A stretch of 64,000 nt of DNA, from the NCBI GenBank assembly GCA_048634245.1, contig JAIWAR010000002.1:5418-69417 (forward strand). The letters are read 5' to 3'. The first letter of the stretch is position 1. Each line of letters opens with the position of its first letter. The notes below the pieces were generated by a model that worked only from the letters and a program-made list of their open reading frames with translations, was not told the DNA's origin and did not search any database. The position numbers were made by a program, and so were the translations under genes. The DNA comes from Methanosarcinales archaeon (lineage in GTDB: Bacteria; Omnitrophota; Gorgyraeia; Duberdicusellales; 4484-171). Shown in pieces: positions 1 to 17,609 of the stretch.

Positions 1-2412
1 CTATAAAACACTATCGAATTCAGCAATTACCATAAATTCACCCTCTTCTGAATTTGGAATACTAATGGGATCGTAATCGGGATTTAAAGACAAAAGAGTT
101 ATTTCTTCATGTTTCCACGATCCATCGTCAAATACCTTTTTTTTGCTTGTATATTTTTTTACAGTATATTTTCCACCTGTTTCGGGATCAGAGATACCAT
201 TATGCTGCACTAAAACAATTTTGTTTTGCCTAGTTCCTTCTACCCCCCATCGAAAAATGCAAAAACTATCATTGGGTATTAGTGGTTCCATAGAATGACC
301 GATCACCTTTGCCACAAACATTCGTCGGTTTAGTTTTTTGCCAATATTTGCCTTAGCCCATCCTTCTTCGTGACTACTCATACCTCGCCCAAAATTACCA
401 GCAGCTGCTTCTAGTGAATAGACTGGTAAATACTCAGTATATTTAAGATGCTCTTCAATATCTTGCTCGATCTTGTAAATTAATTGATCTTCTGCTGCGA
501 CTAAATCAGAAAGTTTAAGGGCTTTTCCTTCATCTATCGGCGTTCCTTCAATACGTGACTTAAAAAACCTCTCTATATCTTTATTCATAAAATAGACATA
601 ACATCCTTTCATCCCGCGGCTAAGTAACACTCTATAAGTATTTTTTATGAGATCAATAAAACCTTCTTTTGAACGCTTTACCACATTGTCAGATGATTTA
701 TGGGGGTTACCCACCCATTCTTGATTATCAAAATCATAAACTAAATCTTCGCCAAAAATAACTCCGACATAATCAAATTCAAATCCTTGCGCAGTATAAA
801 TACACCCCACCTGATTTATTCCATTTGGGTCATATGCCCATAATGAAGCCTTGGGAATTCCCGGAGCTAACCTTCGCGCTTCTGGCTTTGCATCCCAGGG
901 GCGTTTATAATCGCCGATAACAACATCATCTTTTAAAGTTCCATCTTCATTCGGCATAGACCAATCCCAACAAAATCCAGCAGTCACGCGTCCCGTGAAC
1001 CCACTTTTTACTTTTTCCCTTATTGCAGCTTCTAATTCAAAAGGAGATGGGAATATTCTAAAATCAAACTCTTCATGCTGGTCCCAAATAACATTGGCTG
1101 TTCGCTGTATACCGAGTGTATTATTTATCCAATTAACAAAAGCATCTGACCCATTACATCGAAATTGTGCTGCTAATTCATATTCGAACATCTTACAACC
1201 TTCATCATTAGCCCATTTTTTAATGTAGCTTACAGAACCTATTTCGTTAGGCCTTACAACCTGTTTATCATCTATAAGAAATACCGCTACTTTAGATGTA
1301 TGCAATAACTCTTCTATCTGAGAGAATTCTGATCTTTGTGCACGAGGGGTAAAACGGCTGTTGCTTGTTTTACGTATTCTATGTGCCTCATCGGCTATCA
1401 AAACATCTATGATGTTAGGTTCAGCTTGTGCGTAGCTATTAAAATATTTAAATTGCACAGATCCACGCGAGCCAATAATCTTACGGAGCGTTTCCGTAAA
1501 TGCTCTAGACCCTGTTGCATAATGTGCATTAAATCCTTTGAGCGATAAGTCCGCCATAAGATTAATAGCTATTACTGATTTCCCCGTACCTGGGCCACCC
1601 TTAATTATTAAAACTGTTTTTTGTTTGTCTCGAAATCCTCTTTTTGCGCAAGAAAGCACTTTATCGTAAACGATTAGCTGTTCATCAAGCAAGATATATT
1701 CACTTTTTCCTTTTATTATATTACCTACGTGACCCATTAATTTTTTACTTGGCCGGTATTTGCTTTCTTCAACTCTTTTAAGAACGCTTAGCCCCTCACC
1801 TCTTGACATTTTACTAGCTAAATAATCTGCTAACTTATCTACATCATCAGCCGTAAATAAAGGGTACTTAGATAATACGGCAGAAAATTTATCTGAAAAT
1901 ATAACATCTTGATTATAGTAATTATAATTATGAAGATAAGCGCAGGCCCTTAATTTTACAGGATTGTAATCAGTATTAAAGGTGGTATGGGTATCTTGCA
2001 GATACATTTGATATTGACCAACTTGCACTGCTGGATGAAGCACCTCTCTTTTAGCTCCTCCAACCCATGTCAAAACTTCATTATCTCCGGCTGCTTCCTC
2101 ACATTTATCCCATTGTTTAAGCTCTACTATAACAGCATTATCTTCCTTGGAGTCATCTTTGCCACAAATCATACAATCTAATCTTTTTGAAGTTAACGGT
2201 AATTGATACTCTAAAATAACACCATGATCGAATAAGTTTGCATATTGAAAAACTTGAGAAATTGATCTTAGTGAATTACGCCAAGAATTGACTTCTGCCG
2301 GGGCCGGGTTGTAGCGGAAATAATTGAAAAATGCAAGTTTTAGCTTTTCGGCAATTTGATTCTGAATGGTATCATCTATAAACTGCTGAGAGCTTCCTGA
2401 ATAAAGTCTCAT
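1..2412 (-). CDS. Three-module protein: N-terminal PD-(D/E)xK-like nuclease domain, DUF2075 / Schlafen-like SF1-type P-loop ATPase (Nhi-like nuclease-helicase architecture), and C-terminal LexA/UmuD-type S24 serine peptidase domain
   Basis: Walker A GGPGTGKSV and Walker B-like VLIADEAHR. N-terminal D..ExK (RLDCMICGKDD...VIVELKQW). The C-terminal 106 aa align to LexA: GHSMEP (Ser), GGKYTVKKY (Lys), LNPDYDPISI. An AAG candidate cleavage site lies 35 residues before the Ser. The stop codon is at positions 1-3, so the gene is complete. Confidence 0.75.
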   Translation of the reverse strand: MRLYSGSSQQFIDDTIQNQIAEKLKLAFFNYFRYNPAPAEVNSWRNSLRSISQVFQYANLFDHGVILEYQLPLTSKRLDCMICGKDDSKEDNAVIVELKQWDKCEEAAGDNEVLTWVGGAKREVLHPAVQVGQYQMYLQDTHTTFNTDYNPVKLRACAYLHNYNYYNQDVIFSDKFSAVLSKYPLFTADDVDKLADYLASKMSRGEGLSVLKRVEESKYRPSKKLMGHVGNIIKGKSEYILLDEQLIVYDKVLSCAKRGFRDKQKTVLIIKGGPGTGKSVIAINLMADLSLKGFNAHYATGSRAFTETLRKIIGSRGSVQFKYFNSYAQAEPNIIDVLIADEAHRIRKTSNSRFTPRAQRSEFSQIEELLHTSKVAVFLIDDKQVVRPNEIGSVSYIKKWANDEGCKMFEYELAAQFRCNGSDAFVNWINNTLGIQRTANVIWDQHEEFDFRIFPSPFELEAAIREKVKSGFTGRVTAGFCWDWSMPNEDGTLKDDVVIGDYKRPWDAKPEARRLAPGIPKASLWAYDPNGINQVGCIYTAQGFEFDYVGVIFGEDLVYDFDNQEWVGNPHKSSDNVVKRSKEGFIDLIKNTYRVLLSRGMKGCYVYFMNKDIERFFKSRIEGTPIDEGKALKLSDLVAAEDQLIYKIEQDIEEHLKYTEYLPVYSLEAAAGNFGRGMSSHEEGWAKANIGKKLNRRMFVAKVIGHSMEPLIPNDSFCIFRWGVEGTRQNKIVLVQHNGISDPETGGKYTVKKYTSKKKVFDDGSWKHEEITLLSLNPDYDPISIPNSEEGEFMVIAEFDSVL

Positions 2413-2756
2413 AATTTATTATACTTAGTATGCTTTCCTCTAGCCTTTTCTACAGGATATTTCTTTTCATTTTTTGCTAATTTTTTTTCCATAGCACTAA
2501 TTAAATCTATACTTAGATTATCAGCTAGCTCAAAAAGATATAAAGCAATATCAGCTATCTCATCTTTAATTTCATCATGATTCTGCCTTGCGTATTCCTC
2601 CACCTCTTCAATAGTTTTCCACTGAAAATGCTCTAACAACTCAGAAGCTTCAAGAATGATTGAGACAGCCATATTTTTAGGATCATGGAATTGCATCCAG
2701 TCCCGGTCATCTCGAAATTTTTTAATTCTTTCAGTTATATTTTCTACGTCACTCAT
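2409..2756 (-). CDS. MazG-like all-alpha nucleoside triphosphate pyrophosphohydrolase (COG1694 type)
   Basis: FRDDRDWMQFHDPKN...EASELLEHFQW...EIADIALYLFELADNLSIDL...KNEKKYPV matches the MazG/YpjD EExxE and DxxLY motifs. It overlaps the downstream gene by 4 bp (ATGA). Confidence 0.8.
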   Translation of the reverse strand: MSDVENITERIKKFRDDRDWMQFHDPKNMAVSIILEASELLEHFQWKTIEEVEEYARQNHDEIKDEIADIALYLFELADNLSIDLISAMEKKLAKNEKKYPVEKARGKHTKYNKL

Positions 2757-2868
2757 AAAAAACCCCCATTTTAATTAGAGTAGCACTATAGAAATTCCGA
2801 AGACGGTTCACTTAATTACCGAAAAAGAAATTACCCTCTTTATGTTAATAATATATTTAACTTCCCCC

Positions 2869-3069
2869 TTATAATTTTCTCCCCACTAACTTATCCAAAC
2901 TAACCCCAAACACATCTGAAAGTTTAATCAATGTCTTCAAGGTGGGATGTTTCGCTAACCCTTGTTCTATCTTGGTAATCGCATTAAAAGAAAGGCCTGC
3001 TTTCTCAGCAAGTTTTTGCTGAGACCATTCTTTTTGTTTGCGAAATTTCTTTACTCTTCCTGCTAACAT
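2869..3069 (-). CDS. XRE-family (Cro/CI-type) HTH transcriptional regulator
   Basis: QQKLAEKAGLSFNAITKIEQG is the typical XRE HTH; 66 aa. Confidence 0.8.
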   Translation of the reverse strand: MLAGRVKKFRKQKEWSQQKLAEKAGLSFNAITKIEQGLAKHPTLKTLIKLSDVFGVSLDKLVGRKL

Positions 3070-3192
3070 CTTACTTGACCTATTACTACTTTTGTGGTAT
3101 TACTTCTATAGCACTACTTTTGCCATATTTTAGTTAGGCTATTCTACCACTTTGATAGACTTTGAAAAAGAAAAATTTCGGAGATAAAACCT

Positions 3193-3390
3193 ATGCTCTG
3201 GTTCCTAAGCAATTTCCTCCACCCCTACCTCAAACCTAAATACATCTGGGTTAAGGTGCGGATACGGTATGAGACTGAAAAGGCTATTCTTGTATTATGT
3301 AAAGGAGCGAAAGTTTGGCTTCCTAAATCGCGGATAGACAAGATAAAGTTTAAGAGAGGAGTGTTTTGGATTTATGTGCAGATGTTTTGA
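3193..3390 (+). CDS. Small basic hypothetical protein (65 aa), divergent from the XRE gene
   Basis: ORF with GGAG about 10 nt upstream of the ATG. No recognisable domain. Confidence 0.25.
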   Translation: MLWFLSNFLHPYLKPKYIWVKVRIRYETEKAILVLCKGAKVWLPKSRIDKIKFKRGVFWIYVQMF

Positions 3391-3542
3391 TGTTGGGTGG
3401 GCACGGTTTGGGCACAACCCAAAAAGCTTAATTTCCCTTTTTTAGAAATCATTTTTTAATTATTTTTAGTTTCTTTAGAAAAAAATACGTAACCAATTGA
3501 TTTTCAATAGGTTAAAGATTTGAAAAAAACACACCTCCCCCT

Positions 3543-3571
3543 TGACACCGAGACTCGATATGTTATATTTA
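3543..3571 (+). promoter_or_regulatory. Near-consensus sigma70 promoter, TTGACA-N16-TGtTATATT (extended -10), reading into the 3' end of the minus-strand NYN gene
   Basis: ttgacaccgagactcgatatgttatatt read directly. Confidence 0.35.
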
Positions 3572-3595
3572 CTACGCAGGCTAGAAATAGACCTG

Positions 3596-4300
3596 CTAAC
3601 TCACGCGGTCCCGTTCGAAAGAGCGGGATTTTCGCATTTTAGGGCCTTGATACCAGTGCCCAAAATTTACAAATTTAGTTAAAACCCCCCACAGTTCTTT
3701 TGCGACTTGGCCTCTCACTCCAAAAACATAAATATTTTTACCTTTTAGTTTTAACCGATTGAGGGGTTCCTTGAAGTCTGAATCACCAGAAAAAAGTAAA
3801 ACACCAGACACCCTATCCACCACATCTAACATATCGAGTGCGATTTCTACATCAAAATTACACTTTGGTTCTTCTATCACAACCTTTTGGCTTTGAAGAT
3901 ATTCAATTAGCTCGTCCAACTTAGAATGTGCATTGCCATCAAAGAGTTCAAGAGTCCCGGATTTAACGAATAATTTTCTAGTTATTTTTTTCTTAATCCA
4001 TTTCACAGGCTTATTAATTACAATTGCTCCTTTACTTCTTAATACTTTATGGAAATTTTCAGATTTTTTGAAATCGCGATAGTTTACCCCGTAATATATA
4101 CGGATTTCCTTTAATGCAGTTATTTTAAATAACTGCTTAATAACAAAATAGATTGAAAATTTCCATTTTAAGCTATCTTGCCAACCAAACATATTGCTTA
4201 AATCGAGATATGCAATAAGGCTGGTTTCCCTAAAAAACTCATAAGTCTTATTTCTTTCCATTATATATGTTTTTGAAATTCCGAAATTCCGGTGACACAA
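3596..4300 (-). CDS. NYN-domain (LabA-like) putative RNase
   Basis: VLLFSGDSDF motif and conserved upstream D residues of NYN/LabA. The start may be the internal MERNKTY at about 4261. Confidence 0.7.
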   Translation of the reverse strand: MCHRNFGISKTYIMERNKTYEFFRETSLIAYLDLSNMFGWQDSLKWKFSIYFVIKQLFKITALKEIRIYYGVNYRDFKKSENFHKVLRSKGAIVINKPVKWIKKKITRKLFVKSGTLELFDGNAHSKLDELIEYLQSQKVVIEEPKCNFDVEIALDMLDVVDRVSGVLLFSGDSDFKEPLNRLKLKGKNIYVFGVRGQVAKELWGVLTKFVNFGHWYQGPKMRKSRSFERDRVS

Positions 4301-4368
4301 TACTTAATTGTACAAATTCCGTGGAATTCAGTGAAAAACTACCGTCAGATATAATAAACTCCTTATTC

Positions 4369-5349
4369 CTATGAATTTAGTTCTTTCTCTAATCCCTCTA
4401 TCACACCCAAAAGCTCATCAAAATTCGGGTATTCACCAAATATCATCTGCTCCATGTCAGCGTAATCTTTCCTTAATGCACCTGTTAAAGATTCATTTGG
4501 CATTAAAGCAAAAGTGCCTGGTCTCGCAAGATCATCTCTTGCCCAAGAACTTGGAAAGAATTGCTTCTTAAATGTTACTACCTGTTCACAAAGAACCAAA
4601 TCAATAATAGCCGAATCTTTAATACCTTTTTTACACATCATCACAACATCATAGTAATGACGCGAATACCTATCTCTTGATTGTTTACCCGCTGAACGAT
4701 GATGTTCTTGATGCAATATCAGCACTTTTTCCCAAAATGTTCTCTCAGCCTTTATTGCATGTACACTTACCATAGGATCAGAAAACACACCTGGAAATTC
4801 TTCTGCCGCATACGGCTTTATATTATAGAAAGCATTTGGCTTCCATGCTGATCTAGGGCCTATTTCCAAAAAAATACGGTCCTGAATATATTTATCTGTA
4901 AAACTAGACGGATACTTAATAAATATTTTTGCGGTATCACCAGAGGTATTGATATCCAAGACACACAGGTCGCCAACAAGATCCTTAACTATCTGATAAA
5001 TCGTATCTTCAACAAATTTACACGACTTTTGTTTAAGTTCGGCATGCCAAGATTTCTTAGCTTTACCAGAAGTCCCTTCAGGAAGCTGACTCATCTGCAA
5101 AAGATTCCAATTCAGTACAAGATCAATGTCTTCTGAGAATCGCTCTATTACATTAAATACCTTTGAAAGGCTTGTCCCTCCCTTAAACATGATATTCTTA
5201 GAAAACATAGAATGTCTATACAGCTTCTGAAGGACCCAACATGCCCAGAAGTCCTTTTCTATAATTATTTCTCTTACCCCACGCTTTGCAGCACACTCGT
5301 GAAATATATCCGCACGCTGTTTAGGTGGCATCCTTGCAACTTTATTCAA
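4369..5349 (-). CDS. abiEii: AbiEii/AbiGii-family nucleotidyltransferase toxin (DUF1814)
   Basis: N-terminal IEKDFWACWVL signature; length about 320 aa. It overlaps the upstream AbiEi-like gene by 8 bp. Confidence 0.75.
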   Translation of the reverse strand: MNKVARMPPKQRADIFHECAAKRGVREIIIEKDFWACWVLQKLYRHSMFSKNIMFKGGTSLSKVFNVIERFSEDIDLVLNWNLLQMSQLPEGTSGKAKKSWHAELKQKSCKFVEDTIYQIVKDLVGDLCVLDINTSGDTAKIFIKYPSSFTDKYIQDRIFLEIGPRSAWKPNAFYNIKPYAAEEFPGVFSDPMVSVHAIKAERTFWEKVLILHQEHHRSAGKQSRDRYSRHYYDVVMMCKKGIKDSAIIDLVLCEQVVTFKKQFFPSSWARDDLARPGTFALMPNESLTGALRKDYADMEQMIFGEYPNFDELLGVIEGLEKELNS

Positions 5350-5953
5350 TCTTATCTCCTAGTATATACTTGATATTATCATATACACTTCCTGACATAC
5401 CCTTAAAGTCTTTAGATATATTGTTTAGCTCATCATCACTAAAATATGATTTCATTTTAAGCAAATCATCATTACTAATATCCCCCGGCAAGAGCCCCTT
5501 AATAGCCTGCACAAGCAGAGCTGTCTCAGGATACTTAACCGCCATATCTCTTTTAAGTTGATGCTTGAACACAAGTTTTGTTTTACCTATCTTATACTTG
5601 CGATGCGGACCATCTGAATAATAAATAACTCTGCTGGGGACCTGAGCAGAAATACCAAGTATATTTAAAGCAGTATCACTTGAAGGATGTATATTCCAGC
5701 CGCATTTACGCGCAATAGCATCAGCGACCTTTGATATAGCCGGACTAATATATTGTTTAAGGATATCGCTATAAGAAGGATAATCATAGATTCCTGTCAT
5801 AACCCTTCTGATATTACCCTTCTTGTAAAGACGCACTAAAGCCTGACGCACAGCATCTCGTGATGCGATATCCCTGAAATCCACTGCAGAGAAAGCCCAA
5901 GACTTCTTTTTTGAACAAATTTTCCTAAATATTTTATCTTCAATACTATACAT
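5342..5953 (-). CDS. abiEi: AbiEi-family type IV antitoxin / transcriptional autoregulator
   Basis: About 200 aa, immediately upstream of and overlapping AbiEii. Direct-repeat operator-like sites lie just upstream. Confidence 0.6.
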   Translation of the reverse strand: MYSIEDKIFRKICSKKKSWAFSAVDFRDIASRDAVRQALVRLYKKGNIRRVMTGIYDYPSYSDILKQYISPAISKVADAIARKCGWNIHPSSDTALNILGISAQVPSRVIYYSDGPHRKYKIGKTKLVFKHQLKRDMAVKYPETALLVQAIKGLLPGDISNDDLLKMKSYFSDDELNNISKDFKGMSGSVYDNIKYILGDKIE

Positions 5954-5969
5954 ATGCCATATTATACAC

Positions 5970-6016
5970 TTTTGTCACAGAAATTTCAACTTTTTTGTGA
6001 CATTTTGTCACAGAAA
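5970..6016. promoter_or_regulatory. Candidate AbiEi operator: TTTTGTCACAGAAA twice (5970-5983 and 6003-6016), plus a TTTTGTGACA variant between them
   Basis: Repeats read directly, 17-63 bp upstream of the abiEi start codon (5953). Confidence 0.45.
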
Positions 6017-6104
6017 GCAATAGACCTCCATGGATATTACCAAAGCTCAATTCACTGTAATATATAACAAAAACCTTTGTACAATCATGGATTTACGGTT
6101 GACA

Positions 6105-6194
6105 ATTCACAGGAAAAGTGGTATATTTTTTGCAAAAACCATAAAAACATTCAAAATTAACTAAAACAAAAAATATACCACTTTTCCTGTGAAT
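6105..6194. repeat. Perfect 27-bp inverted repeat (attcacaggaaaagtggtatatttttt / aaaaaatataccacttttcctgtgaat) around a 36-nt AT-rich loop
   Basis: Arms at 6105-6131 and 6168-6194 are exact reverse complements. It lies between the PLD-family gene stop (6239) and the abiEi upstream region. Confidence 0.9.
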
Positions 6195-6238
6195 ACAATT
6201 CTTTTTTAAATTTCTACCTATTATCAAATCTTCTCTAC

Positions 6239-7411
6239 TCAATCACCATACTCGCGTAAATCATTAAATGCAGCTTTGATAGTTGATACATTGACATTAA
6301 AACGTTTAGCAAGGGCAGATTTTGATATGGAATATAAGTCTTTTCCTTCATCTTTAAGCAGTGCCTCGATTATACGAAGAAATTTTAAGCGCATAGTCAA
6401 CGCGCTTTTGTTTGTTCTAATAATAGACCTGGTGGGTATACTGAATTGAGATTGCTTCGCTTCGCTCGCAATGACGATAGGCTTCAGTGCTACAACAGCA
6501 TCTCTTCCAAAAACAAACTTTACGTTAATAAGATGATAGCGATTTTGTAGTTTTTTTAAGGTTTTAATTACTTGCCGCCTCAAAGCGCTATATGTCCATG
6601 AATCAGGCATGCCTAAACTTAAAGCCATAGCTTCTAAACTTATTAAAAATTCCTGTTTGCCGGTAGTCTGACTATGAGCTAAAAGTAATAGATAAAGATC
6701 CATAGCGCGTTCACCAGAGCTGGTAACCATACGAGAAAGATATTTTTTATTCAAAAGAAACTCTTTGGGAACAGATAAGCTTTTAGGCAGATTTTCCATA
6801 TAGGCCGGAATATAATGTCTTTTATCACGCGGCGCAGAAGATATAAGAAGGTTTTTAAGGCGTGATAGTTTTACTTGGGCTAAGTCCGGAGAATCGATCA
6901 GCGTAGAAGATTCAAAATTATTCTTCAGCGCTGAAATAGACCAATTAGCGCTGCCTTCAACTACATATCGACTATCAACCACTATAAGTTTATCATGAAG
7001 CCTGCGATTAGAGGGTATAAAATGAATGACAACTCCGGTATTTTCTAATTTCTTAAAAATAGAGCTCTTGATAAAAGGGTTCTCGCCTTTGTCAGAATCT
7101 CTGAAGCGGGTATTAAGATATAGTGTAACTTTAACGCCTCTTTCTCTTGCTTCCAACAAATCGTTAAGCAAAAGCCTTATCGGATTCCTAGTCTTTGTTC
7201 CCAGACTTATACTATATATAGAAATAACTATGGAATTTTGCGCATTATCTAAAAGCTGAATTACAGCTTCTTCGTAACTACGATCAGATATATCTTTTAC
7301 TTTGGCAGAATGAAATGTTTCTTCAAAATCACTGGAGTAAACAGAAGCAGCTAGAATAAAAGTAAAAAAGCCGAGGCTAACCCATGATGAAAGGAATTTT
7401 CGTCTACACAT
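6239..7411 (-). CDS. Secreted phospholipase-D (HKD) family nuclease-like protein with a roughly 190-aa C-terminal HTH-like extension
   Basis: Signal peptide MCRRKFLSSWVSLGFFTFILAASVYS. A single HKD motif HDKLIVVDSRYVVEGSANWS. The C-terminal region has HTH-like segments (ISKSALAKRFNVNVSTIKAAFNDL). Confidence 0.7.
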   Translation of the reverse strand: MCRRKFLSSWVSLGFFTFILAASVYSSDFEETFHSAKVKDISDRSYEEAVIQLLDNAQNSIVISIYSISLGTKTRNPIRLLLNDLLEARERGVKVTLYLNTRFRDSDKGENPFIKSSIFKKLENTGVVIHFIPSNRRLHDKLIVVDSRYVVEGSANWSISALKNNFESSTLIDSPDLAQVKLSRLKNLLISSAPRDKRHYIPAYMENLPKSLSVPKEFLLNKKYLSRMVTSSGERAMDLYLLLLAHSQTTGKQEFLISLEAMALSLGMPDSWTYSALRRQVIKTLKKLQNRYHLINVKFVFGRDAVVALKPIVIASEAKQSQFSIPTRSIIRTNKSALTMRLKFLRIIEALLKDEGKDLYSISKSALAKRFNVNVSTIKAAFNDLREYGD

Positions 7412-7414
7412 CAG

Positions 7415-7512
7415 TAAATATTATAGCAGGAAGGTGAAACTTGGAAAGAAACTTAGTCAACAGGAATATTTAAAACAATTTTCAATAATTAAGTGCGTGT
7501 CTCCAGAACCCC
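7415..7512. repeat. Copy A of a roughly 98-bp promoter/5'-leader cassette, upstream of the PLD-family gene
   Basis: About 93% identical to 8469-8566. On the minus strand it ends in TATAAT plus 8 nt plus ATG. Confidence 0.85.
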
Positions 7513-8013
7513 TTATTCCAACTTTGTCCGCTTTGGTATATTACCATTTTTGAAATGCTTATCGAGCCAGCCATTTTTCACATTTTCTCTTGAATCAAAA
7601 TGCGAAACATAGGGTTTAATATCTAACAAAGGTGTACCATCTAATATATCAACCTCTGAAAACGTAATAATATTACTCTCTACTTTTTCCAATTTCACAA
7701 TAGAAAACCCAATATGATTCGGCCTCATCGGACTCCTAATTGCAAATATCCCGTGTGATTCATCTTCAAGGAAGGGTCTGCCGATAAGCTTCTCATCTTT
7801 AGATCTATCAAAATAATAGATTAAAATAATATGAGAAAATCCTTCTATATCTTTAAGGCCCTGCCGATACTCTGAAAATAGCTCAGCCTGGCCAGTAACG
7901 CCTTTTTCAAATCTACCTTGGATAGGTATACCCTTTGGTTCTTTATATGGCGTATGAATTATGCCTATTGGTTTCAATTTTATCTCTTTTTCCATATTAC
8001 ATCCAACATCCAA
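7513..8013 (-). CDS. tsaA: tRNA (adenine37-N6)-methyltransferase TsaA (YaeB/UPF0066 family)
   Basis: IGIIHTPYKEPKGIPIQG...AIRSPMRPNHIGFS...LDGTPLLDIKPY are conserved TsaA motifs. The start is probably MEKEIKL at 7995. Confidence 0.75.
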   Translation of the reverse strand: MDVGCNMEKEIKLKPIGIIHTPYKEPKGIPIQGRFEKGVTGQAELFSEYRQGLKDIEGFSHIILIYYFDRSKDEKLIGRPFLEDESHGIFAIRSPMRPNHIGFSIVKLEKVESNIITFSEVDILDGTPLLDIKPYVSHFDSRENVKNGWLDKHFKNGNIPKRTKLE

Positions 8014-8162
8014 ACGTCTTTACGAAAATCTTCATAGAATATCTCCTGACGTTTGGGTGTCACATCCGAGCCGCTTCGGGTTAAAAGTTACGCAGCGGAG
8101 CGGAGTAAGATTTAACCCGATATATAGGCGGCCGGATGAAATCAGTTTGCTTCTATTATCTC

Positions 8163-8465
8163 TCATACTTTTCTTGCCAACACCTTATCTAATCTCATGC
8201 CGCCAACTAACAATTCTTTCTGCCCGCGATTCAACTGCTTAATCTTATATTCCGCCCTCATCGCATAGCACAAATGACAATACTCCTTTGTCCAAGCCAC
8301 CTTAACCGGCCTTTTGTATCGTGTATATTTAGCTCCCCGCTCACTTTCATTATGTTCTTTGATACGTTTTTCCAAATCATTAGTATATCCGGTATAGTAT
8401 GTTCTGTCAGAACACTCAAGAATATACACAAAAAATCTACCAGAATGCTTAAAATTAGACTTCAC
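8163..8465 (-). CDS. GIY-YIG nuclease family protein (YhbQ/UPF0213-like)
   Basis: FFVYILECSDRTYYTGYTNDLEKRIKEHN; 100 aa; GTG start. Confidence 0.75.
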   Translation of the reverse strand: MKSNFKHSGRFFVYILECSDRTYYTGYTNDLEKRIKEHNESERGAKYTRYKRPVKVAWTKEYCHLCYAMRAEYKIKQLNRGQKELLVGGMRLDKVLARKV

Positions 8466-8468
8466 GTT

Positions 8469-8566
8469 TAAATATTATAACAGGAAGGTGAAACTTAGAA
8501 AGAAATTTAGTCAACAGGAATATTTAAGACAATTTTCAACAATTAAGTGTGTGTCCCCGGAACTCC
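8469..8566. repeat. Copy B of the roughly 98-bp promoter/5'-leader cassette, upstream of the GIY-YIG gene
   Basis: About 93% identical to 7415-7512. TATAAT plus 8 nt plus GTG on the minus strand. Confidence 0.85.
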
Positions 8567-8625
8567 AAGTGAGCTGTCCCCGGAATTCTCCCGGAATTCC
8601 CCGGAATTCACACCCGAATTCATAT
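8548..8625. repeat. Degenerate tandem array (about 5 units) of a CCCCGGAAYTC motif
   Basis: gtccccggaactcc / gtccccggaattct / cccggaattcc / ccggaattcac / acccgaattcat read directly. Related single copies lie at 7500-7512, 8951-8967 and 10003-10020. Confidence 0.7.
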
Positions 8626-8910: not shown

Positions 8911-8969
8911 TACCCCTCCTCCTAATTACAATCACTAAATTTAATTTTAGTGTGCCCCCGGAATTACTC

Positions 8970-9932: not shown

Positions 9933-10061
9933 TAGTACCTCCTTCAAGCACACCAATATGGCGGCTTAATTTTCCTTAAATCTATGTGAATAGTTATGGT
10001 AGCTGCCCCCGGAACTCCAGAACTCTTTAAATGTCTAATGTCAAGGTTTGACCCGTTATTA

Positions 10062-16577: not shown

Positions 16578-17609
16578 ATGCTTTCCCAAATAAAAAAGAA
16601 AATTAACCACGAGCTTTGTCTTTTCCTCCAAAATGCTGATAGACTCTACTCCTTAAGAGCAATATCGCCCTTACTATTTAGAAGTATTAAGGACTTTATT
16701 CAGAGAGACGGCAAACGCATACGCCCTATCCTCTTTATTTTAGGTTACCAGGGTTTTAGCGAAAAAAAAGCGCCTGGCCTTTATCAAAGCGCTCTCTGCG
16801 TAGAACTCCTTCATGATTTTTTTCTCATTCACGACGATATAATCGACAAGTCTGATACCCGCCGGAGTAAACCCTCTTTACATAAGATATTCGATAAATA
16901 CCTAATCAAATATCGGAATCTCAAATTTAACGGCCAGGACTTAGCAATTGTAGCCGCCGATATCATCTACGCCTTAGCGATTAATGCCTTTCTGACAATA
17001 AAAGAAGATCCTCAACGCAAAGAAAAAGCTTTACAAAGGTTCCTTAAAGCTTCAGTCCATACCGCCGGCGGAGAGTTTATTGAACTTTTAGCCGGGGCAA
17101 AAAAAATTAAAAATTTAACTAAGAAGGAAATTTACAAAATTTATGACTATAAAACCGCTCATTACACCTTTGCCTCGCCGCTTGCAATGGGAGCAAGATT
17201 AGCCGGAGCTGCTCAAAATCAAATTGATATACTCACGAGTTACAGCCTCTATCTGGGGAGAGCTTTCCAGATAAAAGATGATATTCTGGGTTTATTTTTT
17301 GACCAGAAAAAAATCGGTAAATCAACACTTTCGGACCTGCAGGAAGCAAAAAAAACCCTGCTTATCTGGTATGCTTATAATCACACCAACCAAAAAAATA
17401 AGTCTTTTATAGAAAAAACTTTCTTAAAAAAGAAAGTGACAAAAAATGACTTATTAGCAGTACGAAAAATAGCAGAAGAATCCGGGGCGCTAAATTACGC
17501 TCAAGGTGAAATCTATAATCTCACCGGGAAAGCAAAAACTATAATCGCATCGGCCAAGATGAAAATCAAGTACAAGAATCTTCTTTCCCGGTACACCGAA
17601 CAATTCTAA
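16578..17609 (+). CDS. Polyprenyl (isoprenyl) diphosphate synthase
   Basis: First and second Asp-rich motifs FLIHDDIIDKSD and FQIKDDILG. Confidence 0.8.
   Translation: MLSQIKKKINHELCLFLQNADRLYSLRAISPLLFRSIKDFIQRDGKRIRPILFILGYQGFSEKKAPGLYQSALCVELLHDFFLIHDDIIDKSDTRRSKPSLHKIFDKYLIKYRNLKFNGQDLAIVAADIIYALAINAFLTIKEDPQRKEKALQRFLKASVHTAGGEFIELLAGAKKIKNLTKKEIYKIYDYKTAHYTFASPLAMGARLAGAAQNQIDILTSYSLYLGRAFQIKDDILGLFFDQKKIGKSTLSDLQEAKKTLLIWYAYNHTNQKNKSFIEKTFLKKKVTKNDLLAVRKIAEESGALNYAQGEIYNLTGKAKTIIASAKMKIKYKNLLSRYTEQF

Follow-up and report, generated by a model that had tools for sequence, protein, structure and literature searches.

Here, we describe a duplicated upstream cassette in a 64,000-nt stretch of an Omnitrophota metagenome-assembled genome (MAG), namely positions 5,418 to 69,417 of contig JAIWAR010000002.1 (assembly GCA_048634245.1). 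This whole stretch is called the window, and all positions below are given in its coordinates. The first part of the window (1-8500) is a defence-type island with a Schlafen-like helicase accompanied by an S24 peptidase, a MazG-like protein, an NYN protein, AbiEi/AbiEii, a PLD-like gene and a small open reading frame (ORF) resembling an XRE-type HTH regulator (the last judged by eye). Next come a GIY-YIG/TrmO gene pair and then ordinary housekeeping genes. The two copies of the cassette and the three genes around them are the following.

7415..7512, minus strand: cassette copy 1, flanked directly by the TrmO stop codon (7513) and the PLD start (7411)
8469..8566, minus strand: cassette copy 2, upstream of the GIY-YIG gene, 91% identical to copy 1
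6239..7411, minus strand: PLDc_2 protein with a C-terminal HTH_36 domain, 390 aa, hydrophobic N-terminus (Pfam; start placed by homologue N-termini)
7513..8013, minus strand: TrmO_N (= tsaA), a TrmO/TsaA-like tRNA methyltransferase (Pfam)
8163..8465, minus strand: GIY-YIG protein, 100 aa from GTG 8465 (Pfam)

A repeat search of the window returned a direct repeat of 98 nt in two copies, 7415-7512 and 8469-8566, and this confirms the duplicated upstream region proposed in the first-pass annotation of this stretch. The measured identity is 91% (89/98) and not the ~93% given there, and all nine mismatches are transitions. When the copies were aligned together with their flanks, the similarity showed sharp edges: on the minus strand it ends 3 nt 5' of each start codon, and the other edge of copy 1 falls right after the TAA stop of the TrmO gene (7513). 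Read on the same strand, the cassette consists of an inverted box, about 45 nt of AT-rich sequence, and an extended -10 element with an 8-nt spacer, so that both copies finish as ...CACCTTCCTG(C/T)TATAAT-ATTTA(CTG/AAC)-ATG/GTG. The AT-rich part holds the -35-like hexamers TTGAAA (1 nt from the box), TTGACT and TTTCYA, and direct repeats of TTCCTGTT recur within the cassette at an interval of 34 nt. The copies differ at 5 of 27 nt in the box part, as against 4 of 71 nt in the promoter part. A 47-nt pattern of the cassette core matches at these two sites only in the window, and in none of 100 shuffles. Exact-pattern scans gave no match for the core in the genome and metagenome contig collections and none for the -10-proximal end in viral contigs, and no cassette homologue was found near PLD orthologues in 54 loci.

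Each copy contains a predicted sigma-70 promoter of the extended -10 type (TGnTATAAT, with a -35 hexamer 16-18 nt upstream), built from the following elements.

7420..7428, minus strand: copy 1 extended -10 TGCTATAAT, with TATAAT at 7425-7420 and TG at 7428-7427, 8 nt (ATTTACTG) before ATG 7411-7409
8474..8482, minus strand: copy 2 extended -10 TGTTATAAT, with TATAAT at 8479-8474 and TG at 8482-8481, 8 nt (ATTTAAAC) before GTG 8465-8463
7442..7447, minus strand: copy 1 weak -35-like TTTCCA, 4/6 match to the consensus, 16-nt spacer
8496..8501, minus strand: copy 2 weak -35-like TTTCTA, 3/6 match to the consensus, 16-nt spacer

Positions -18 to -4 of both starts contain no Shine-Dalgarno (SD) motif (GGAG, GAGG, AGGA or GGGG); the upstream stretch reads CACCTTCCTG. 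The earlier observation of a perfect TATAAT 8 nt before the start codon, with no SD sequence, is therefore borne out at 7411 and at 8465; the 5'-leader that was also ascribed to the cassette is not present. In bioinformatic work, the accepted mark of a bacterial leaderless gene is a TANNNT box situated about 10-12 bp before the start codon (Zheng et al. 2011, PMC3160421), and both genes show this arrangement, with a -10-like box at about that distance, no SD sequence and an ATG or GTG at the correct N-terminus. In mycobacteria, a 5'-terminal ATG or GTG is enough for leaderless translation (Shell et al. 2015, PMC4633059). The window resembles these TA-led systems (defined bioinformatically in PMC3160421 and by experiment, in mycobacteria, in PMC4633059) in the -10-type TANNNT box about 10 bp upstream of an ATG or GTG, in the lack of SD sequences and in having leadered and leaderless genes in one genome. 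It differs from them in that the host is an Omnitrophota MAG and in that the 8-nt spacing may leave a leader of 1-2 nt.

The position of the start codons was assessed by comparison with homologues of both proteins, which come overwhelmingly from MAGs of Candidatus Omnitrophota. The closest homologues of the GIY-YIG protein (71-82% identity, 100-101 aa) begin with MK(T/I/R).F(K/N)R(S/T)GRFFVYILEC (MK.NFKRSGRFFVYILEC), and these N-termini match MKSNFKHSGRFFVYILEC read from GTG 8465 in the window. The public annotation of the same gene (P0121) is an 88-aa protein from an internal GTG 12 codons later, which is probably too short. The PLD homologues share a basic-then-hydrophobic N-terminus with the window protein and align with it up to residue 1, and no alternative in-frame start is available for this gene. 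In the locus L182 (1380-1440; loci are designated here by L numbers) the called GIY-YIG start also lies downstream of a likely GTG, which is itself 8 nt after a TATAAT. These calls look like systematic mis-calling of leaderless starts, likely because gene callers expect a ribosome-binding site. The comparison thus corrects a gene start, adding 12 residues to the publicly annotated GIY-YIG protein, and identifies one orthologue that is mis-started as well.

The geometry seen in copy 2 is conserved upstream of GIY-YIG orthologues. In L175 and L182, which belong to two different assemblies, the sequence before the gene is TTTCTGCTATAATATCTAAAC-GTG; in L176 it is the same except for TAAGC-ATG, and in L180/L181 it reads TATATAAT-GTATTAAT-ATG. 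TATAAT followed by exactly 8 nt and ATG or GTG, without an SD motif, is thereby kept in four other genomes. Further upstream than about -21, the orthologous sequences are unrelated to that of the window. The last ~21 nt of copy 2 agree with L175 at 19/22 positions; spacing and GTG are identical, the first codons are similar, and the genomes that share this -10-proximal stretch do not carry the box. An orthologue located inside an operon (L177-179) has a GAAGG-type motif instead. Among the PLD orthologues, the clade of L001-4 and L007-11 has TGATATAAT + 6 nt + GTG, L006 has TTGACA-17-TAAACT + 9 nt + ATG, and a third clade has an ordinary leader with AAGGAA.

Similar starts occur elsewhere in the window. 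Five more genes without an SD motif (starts 5953, 23736, 55305, 28939 and 45912) show this layout, a -10-like hexamer standing 6-8 nt ahead of the start, and in the 58-gene set hexamers of this kind concentrate 6-8 nt from the start; about half of the window genes have a clear GGAG-type SD sequence. On this basis, starts of the leaderless type seem to be used regularly in this genome, though by a minority of genes. The leaderless-promoter reading is thus supported by comparison: the geometry, the lack of an SD motif and the conservation in orthologues all speak for the leaderless mRNAs claimed in the first-pass annotation, though a leader of 1-4 nt may be present instead of none. We found no relevant report on leaderless genes in Omnitrophota in the literature. 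The individual hexamers and distances are TATAAT + 7 nt (5953), TGATATAAT + 6 (23736), TGGTATGAT + 8 (55305), TAGAAT + 6 (28939, plus strand) and TAAAAT + 8 (45912). A further start without an SD motif, at 16578 on the plus strand, follows TGTTAGCAT by 6 nt.

At its distal end (~25 nt), the cassette carries a copy of the 25-nt repeat (G)AATTAAGTAT(G/T)GTGTCCCCGGAATT, which has the character of a terminal inverted repeat (TIR). The distal ~28 nt resembles the sequence upstream of the NYN gene (4309-4284, opposite strand) and that upstream of the PLD orthologue in L005. A degenerate box pattern derived from the cassette, NYN and L005 sequences was scanned against one genome per species, and the window was scored with an nhmmer profile built from the listed box instances. 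The boxes recognised in the window are the following.

8541..8564, plus strand: TIR-type box of copy 2, AATTAAGTGTGTGTCCCCGGAACT (profile match 8532-8569, nhmmer E=1.9e-6)
7487..7510, plus strand: degenerate TIR-type box of copy 1, AATTAAGTGCGTGTCTCCAGAACC (nhmmer 7480-7495, E=2.7, not significant alone)
8569..8617, plus strand: iterated (C)CCGGAATTC motifs on the outer side of the copy 2 box, as beside many boxes in other genomes
4284..4309, minus strand: best-preserved box of the window, AATTAAGTATTGTGTCACCGGAATTT, then CGGAATTTC, between AbiEii and NYN (profile match 4278-4317, nhmmer E=5e-9)
8575-8596, 8598-8617, 8949-8969 and 10007-10028, plus strand: partial matches in the box profile search
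2790-2817, minus strand: a further degenerate or partial box, intergenic

The copy 2 box departs from the 25-nt consensus by one deletion and one mismatch, and its minus strand holds GGGGACAC. The box of copy 1 is recognisable solely through its homology to copy 2 and reads GGAGACAC in place of the GGGGWSAS motif discussed below. No Y1 transposase gene was found in the window, where all boxes are solo repeats. Motifs of the form CCCCGGAAY are over-represented in the window and cluster at 8555-8610, 8956 and 10007. The boxes at 2790-2817, 8947-8969 and 10000-10028 occupy consecutive intergenic regions of the island and its right-hand neighbours, and the window boxes are on the plus strand wherever they lie to the right of the PLD gene and on the minus strand wherever they lie to its left.

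The scan returned at least 145 copies of the box in at least 120 loci. The listed matches come from Omnitrophota, Planctomycetota, Desulfobacterota, Elusimicrobia, Aminicenantes, Nitrospirota, Proteobacteria and other phyla; only 2 matches were obtained in viral contigs, where the box is thus rare. Positions left free in the search pattern are almost invariant among the 145 copies listed, and therefore the matches are homologous and do not arise by chance. When ORFs neighbouring the boxes were clustered, one recurrent gene emerged among the loci listed, which encodes a Y1_Tnp protein of ~230 aa (PF01797) whose best NCBIfam match is REP-associated tyrosine transposase, below the family cut-off. 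In about a dozen of the 17 listed loci carrying this gene the box stands on both sides of it in inverted orientation, for instance in L069, L071, L091, L105, L114, L151, L161 and L174. In intact units, the inverted TIR is followed within 1-2 nt by a TTGACA-17-TATAAT-like sequence and 6-8 nt later by the ATG of the transposase, and by this arrangement the Y1 genes look leaderless as well. Adjacent box pairs that face inward comprise, among the matches listed, 27 head-to-head doublets <150 nt and 8 pairs at 600-1100 nt that enclose Y1; above 1100 nt, the same matches hold 1 inward pair vs 6 of opposite orientation. The Y1 (TIRYT-type) units measure ~0.7-0.9 kb (e.g., L174:379-1143, L105:139-899 and L071:2535-3286), their promoter sites can be seen at L174:379-470, L097:4113-4170, L151:6733-6799, L071:2535-2600 (also L091) and L105:833-899, and iterated GGAAYT motifs often extend outward from the boxes.

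This box family fits a class that has already been described, the TIRtrons/TIRYTs (Di Nocera et al. 2013, PMC3733652; Quentin et al. 2018, PMC6006769), whose TIRs are described as sharing GGGGWSAS (PMC3733652; subclass 2.1, PMC6006769). The motif is present in the box consensus and in GGGGACAC of copy 2. In other genomes, as in the descriptions of that class, inverted boxes stand on either side of Y1 genes, and boxes are also found singly, in head-to-head dimers and in clusters. Unlike the elements described there, the window boxes are solo, partly degenerate and without a Y1 gene nearby. Observed here in addition to those descriptions are the near-identity of the 25-mer across phyla and the compact leaderless-type promoter next to the box of intact elements. 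The REP/REPIN-RAYT system (Bertels & Rainey 2011, PMC3116915) is likewise a short repeat tied to a Y1 transposase, with inverted doublets and matching arms. In contrast to REP/REPIN sequences, which are individually palindromic units of 20-40 nt, the single box is not self-complementary and lacks the GTAG tag, no doublet is present in the window, and the box is shared across phyla whereas REP sequences are lineage-specific. A literature search by sequence string returned nothing relevant.

We consider it probable that the cassette is a duplicated composite, in which a leaderless-type promoter with a core native to the GIY-YIG gene is joined to a solo transposon-end repeat, and that it was copied in front of the PLD gene. 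According to this explanation, a sigma-70-type promoter with an extended -10, a weak -35 and 8 nt to the ATG or GTG would direct RNA polymerase to start at the start codon or 1-2 nt (4 at most) before it, and the PLD and GIY-YIG mRNAs, leaderless or nearly so, would be translated without an SD sequence. The distal ~25 nt would be a solo, decaying 25-nt TIR of the kind that elsewhere flanks small Y1 (IS200-like, TIRYT-type) genes, and the ~21 nt around the -10 would be the GIY-YIG gene's own sequence. DNA with a TIR-type repeat at its end would in this lineage have replaced the sequence upstream of the GIY-YIG core promoter, and the 98 bp would later have been copied before the PLD-like gene, at the head of the defence island right after TrmO. 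Candidate routes are a tandem duplication with subsequent replacement or an integration through recombination inside the cassette, and the earlier proposal that the cassette was spread by recombination is reasonable. Copy 2 would be the one in native context, because homology to the GIY-YIG promoters of genomes without the box runs unbroken through its last ~21 nt; of the two copies it also has the better box, and it retains the outer iterations of GGAATTC that stand beside many boxes in other genomes.

Each ingredient of this explanation belongs to a known kind, namely leaderless genes, promoter reuse or TIRYT repeats. In promoter reuse by putative mobile promoters (Nijveen, Matus-Garcia & van Passel 2012, PMC3575422), a similar upstream region likewise precedes non-homologous genes and has a repeat attached, and the 91% identity over 98 nt before the PLD-like and GIY-YIG genes corresponds to this. 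Unlike in that study, only two copies of the cassette are known, 1 kb apart, and none was found in the other genomes scanned.

Several points weigh against our explanation. The -35 hexamers are weak in both copies (3-4 of 6 positions). The gap of 8 nt between hexamer and start codon is 2 nt longer than the distance most commonly used in sigma-70 start-site selection, and a leader of 1-2 nt is as likely as none because of this excess. GTG is a poor leaderless start in E. coli (PMC4633059). No further copy of the 98-bp cassette was found in the 64-kb window, which is the part of this genome that was searched. Moreover, in the L001 clade the core of the PLD orthologues, TTTCTGATATAAT, is rather similar to that of the cassette. 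This makes the direction of copying uncertain, and convergence on a common promoter consensus may have taken the place of copying.

A neutral duplication, or a remnant of a mobile element without any promoter role, would instead leave both genes to read-through transcription and SD-independent translation. This we regard as unlikely. Neither cassette is separated from the genes upstream of it by a terminator-like site, a decaying repeat makes up one quarter of the cassette, and a divergence of 9% made up of transitions alone is what unconstrained drift would leave. Such drift is at odds with the retention of TATAAT + 8 nt + RTG in the GIY-YIG orthologues of four other genomes whose flanks have turned over, and with a box that has diverged more than the promoter part. 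The end of the repeat 3 nt from both starts is also hard to explain without selection on spacing. The mobile-element alternative, which had been raised at first pass as well, is partly true, since the distal quarter (~25 of the 98 nt) is a solo transposon-end repeat and not promoter.

Since the promoter of an intact unit stands beside its box, the cassette could also be read as a portable transposon-end promoter. It would then be a TIRYT/TIRtron end that has lost its transposase, drives host or cargo genes and was spread by a Y1 transposase or by recombination between TIRs. More generally, a TIRYT-type repeat with a compact promoter would form a portable leaderless expression module, serving the Y1 transposase in intact elements and host and defence-island genes where it is solo or rearranged, here the PLD-like/HTH gene at the head of an AbiE-containing island and the GIY-YIG/TrmO operon. 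Both statements appear unlikely to us. The cassette does mimic the layout of an intact element, with TTGAAA 1 nt after the TIR, and the order reverse-complement box, promoter, genes and forward box + GGAATTTC (7510 to 4284) mimics a TIRtron. However, none of the inner flanks of the 145 boxes listed is homologous to the 68 nt inside the cassette, TTGA stands beside the TIR in only 9 of these 145, and the ~21 nt nearest the -10 have their orthologues in GIY-YIG promoters from genomes without the box. The absence of a Y1 gene from the window and of the cassette pattern from the genome, metagenome and viral collections points the same way. In the strong form of the portable-end reading, the inverted boxes at 7510 or 8564 and the box at 4284 would bound a cargo element PLD-AbiEi-AbiEii. 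Large inward pairs are not enriched among the matches listed (1 vs 6 above 1100 nt), therefore large TIR-bounded cargo is not a pattern, and a cargo element from 4284 to 7510 or 8564 is unsupported by the box-pair statistics. If the portable module were real, it would link a transposon end shared across phyla with the spread of promoters and with the boundaries of islands.

Co-regulation of the PLD-like gene and of GIY-YIG/TrmO by a shared operator, for which the TTCCTGTT direct repeats or the box would be the candidates, is improbable, and it is compatible with the composite-duplication explanation rather than exclusive of it. Two non-homologous genes do have 98 bp in common at 91% identity, the PLD protein carries an HTH domain, and the direct repeats are visible; yet no regulator or operator was identified, the repeated octamer is not conserved upstream of the orthologues, and a box found in many phyla in unrelated contexts speaks against an operator specific to these genes. 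The co-induction of two nucleases suggested in the first-pass annotation is a conjecture, because the GIY-YIG gene is syntenic with tRNA-modification genes in relatives.

What is left (an integron attC-like site, a structured RNA, or the 5' end of a small plus-strand gene, MKL.KK.SQQEYL.QFS.IKCVSPE) is barely credible: the small genes in the same direction with ~100-bp repeats abutting stop and start codons do recall a cassette array, and the plus strand does have an SD-like AGGAAGG and a GTG, but as single-stranded DNA neither strand folds better than shuffles (z = +0.7 to +1.9) and R/L boxes are missing, with no RYYYAAC/GTTRRRY pair in the cassette sequence; Rfam gives 0 matches at the gathering score in the whole window; and the plus-strand ORFs, also considered as a transposase N-terminus, differ in length (39 vs 64 aa), have the GTG abutting the SD-like motif and show 5 non-synonymous vs 3 synonymous changes. 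A tRNA remnant was rejected as well (no ARAGORN match, and the box does not fit a tRNA T-arm), as was a reading of the box as a sigma-54 or extracytoplasmic-function (ECF) promoter, whose spacing does not fit by eye.

As it stands, the cassette is a clean small example of promoter reuse, in which a core promoter and a transposon-end repeat appear to have been copied to a precise distance from another start codon. The conserved geometry provides sequence-level evidence that the uncultured phylum Omnitrophota may use leaderless-type initiation for a subset of first-in-operon genes. The 25-nt transposon end, near-identical from Omnitrophota to Planctomycetota, Desulfobacterota and Proteobacteria, can serve as a marker for annotating such repeats, and may prove more widely useful than the duplication.

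The neighbouring genes offer some further observations. The TrmO/TsaA-like gene (7513-7995) is probably co-transcribed with GIY-YIG, and the same gene pair is found in L176. Across Omnitrophota, the GIY-YIG gene stands next to tRNA-modification genes, either TrmO (the window and L176) or a MiaB/RimO-like radical-SAM gene (L175, L177-180 and L182), and it seems to be a gene of the core genome and not a mobile or defence nuclease. The PLD protein had been described as a secreted nuclease, which agrees with its N-terminal hydrophobic segment; it also has a C-terminal DNA-binding HTH, so secretion is unproven. PLDc_2+HTH proteins form a conserved Omnitrophota family of ~380 aa, sometimes with paralogues on one contig, and their genes repeatedly edge variable defence cargo such as HTH_17 with type I restriction-modification, AbiEii or DUF4062/HATPase (L001, L002, L005, L006 and L023; window 3596-7411). 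In L023, the gene directly follows a tRNA-gene-like sequence (judged by eye). The family may mark an integration hot spot or may belong to the islands.

Two palindromic sequences lie in or beside the PLD gene. Between its stop codon and the AbiEi promoter, a perfect 28-bp inverted repeat with a 34-nt loop (ATTCACAGGAAAAGTGGTATATTTTTTG..., 6105-6194) could be a terminator, a miniature inverted-repeat transposable element (MITE) or an operator. Inside the gene, the palindromic ATTGCTTCGCTTCGCTCGCAAT (6451-6472) coincides with 6 extra residues (VIASEAKQSQ) relative to an orthologue of 73% identity, and may be an in-frame insertion of a small palindromic repeat. Strings of the type cattgcgag...gaagcaatc also adjoin boxes in L128 and L133.

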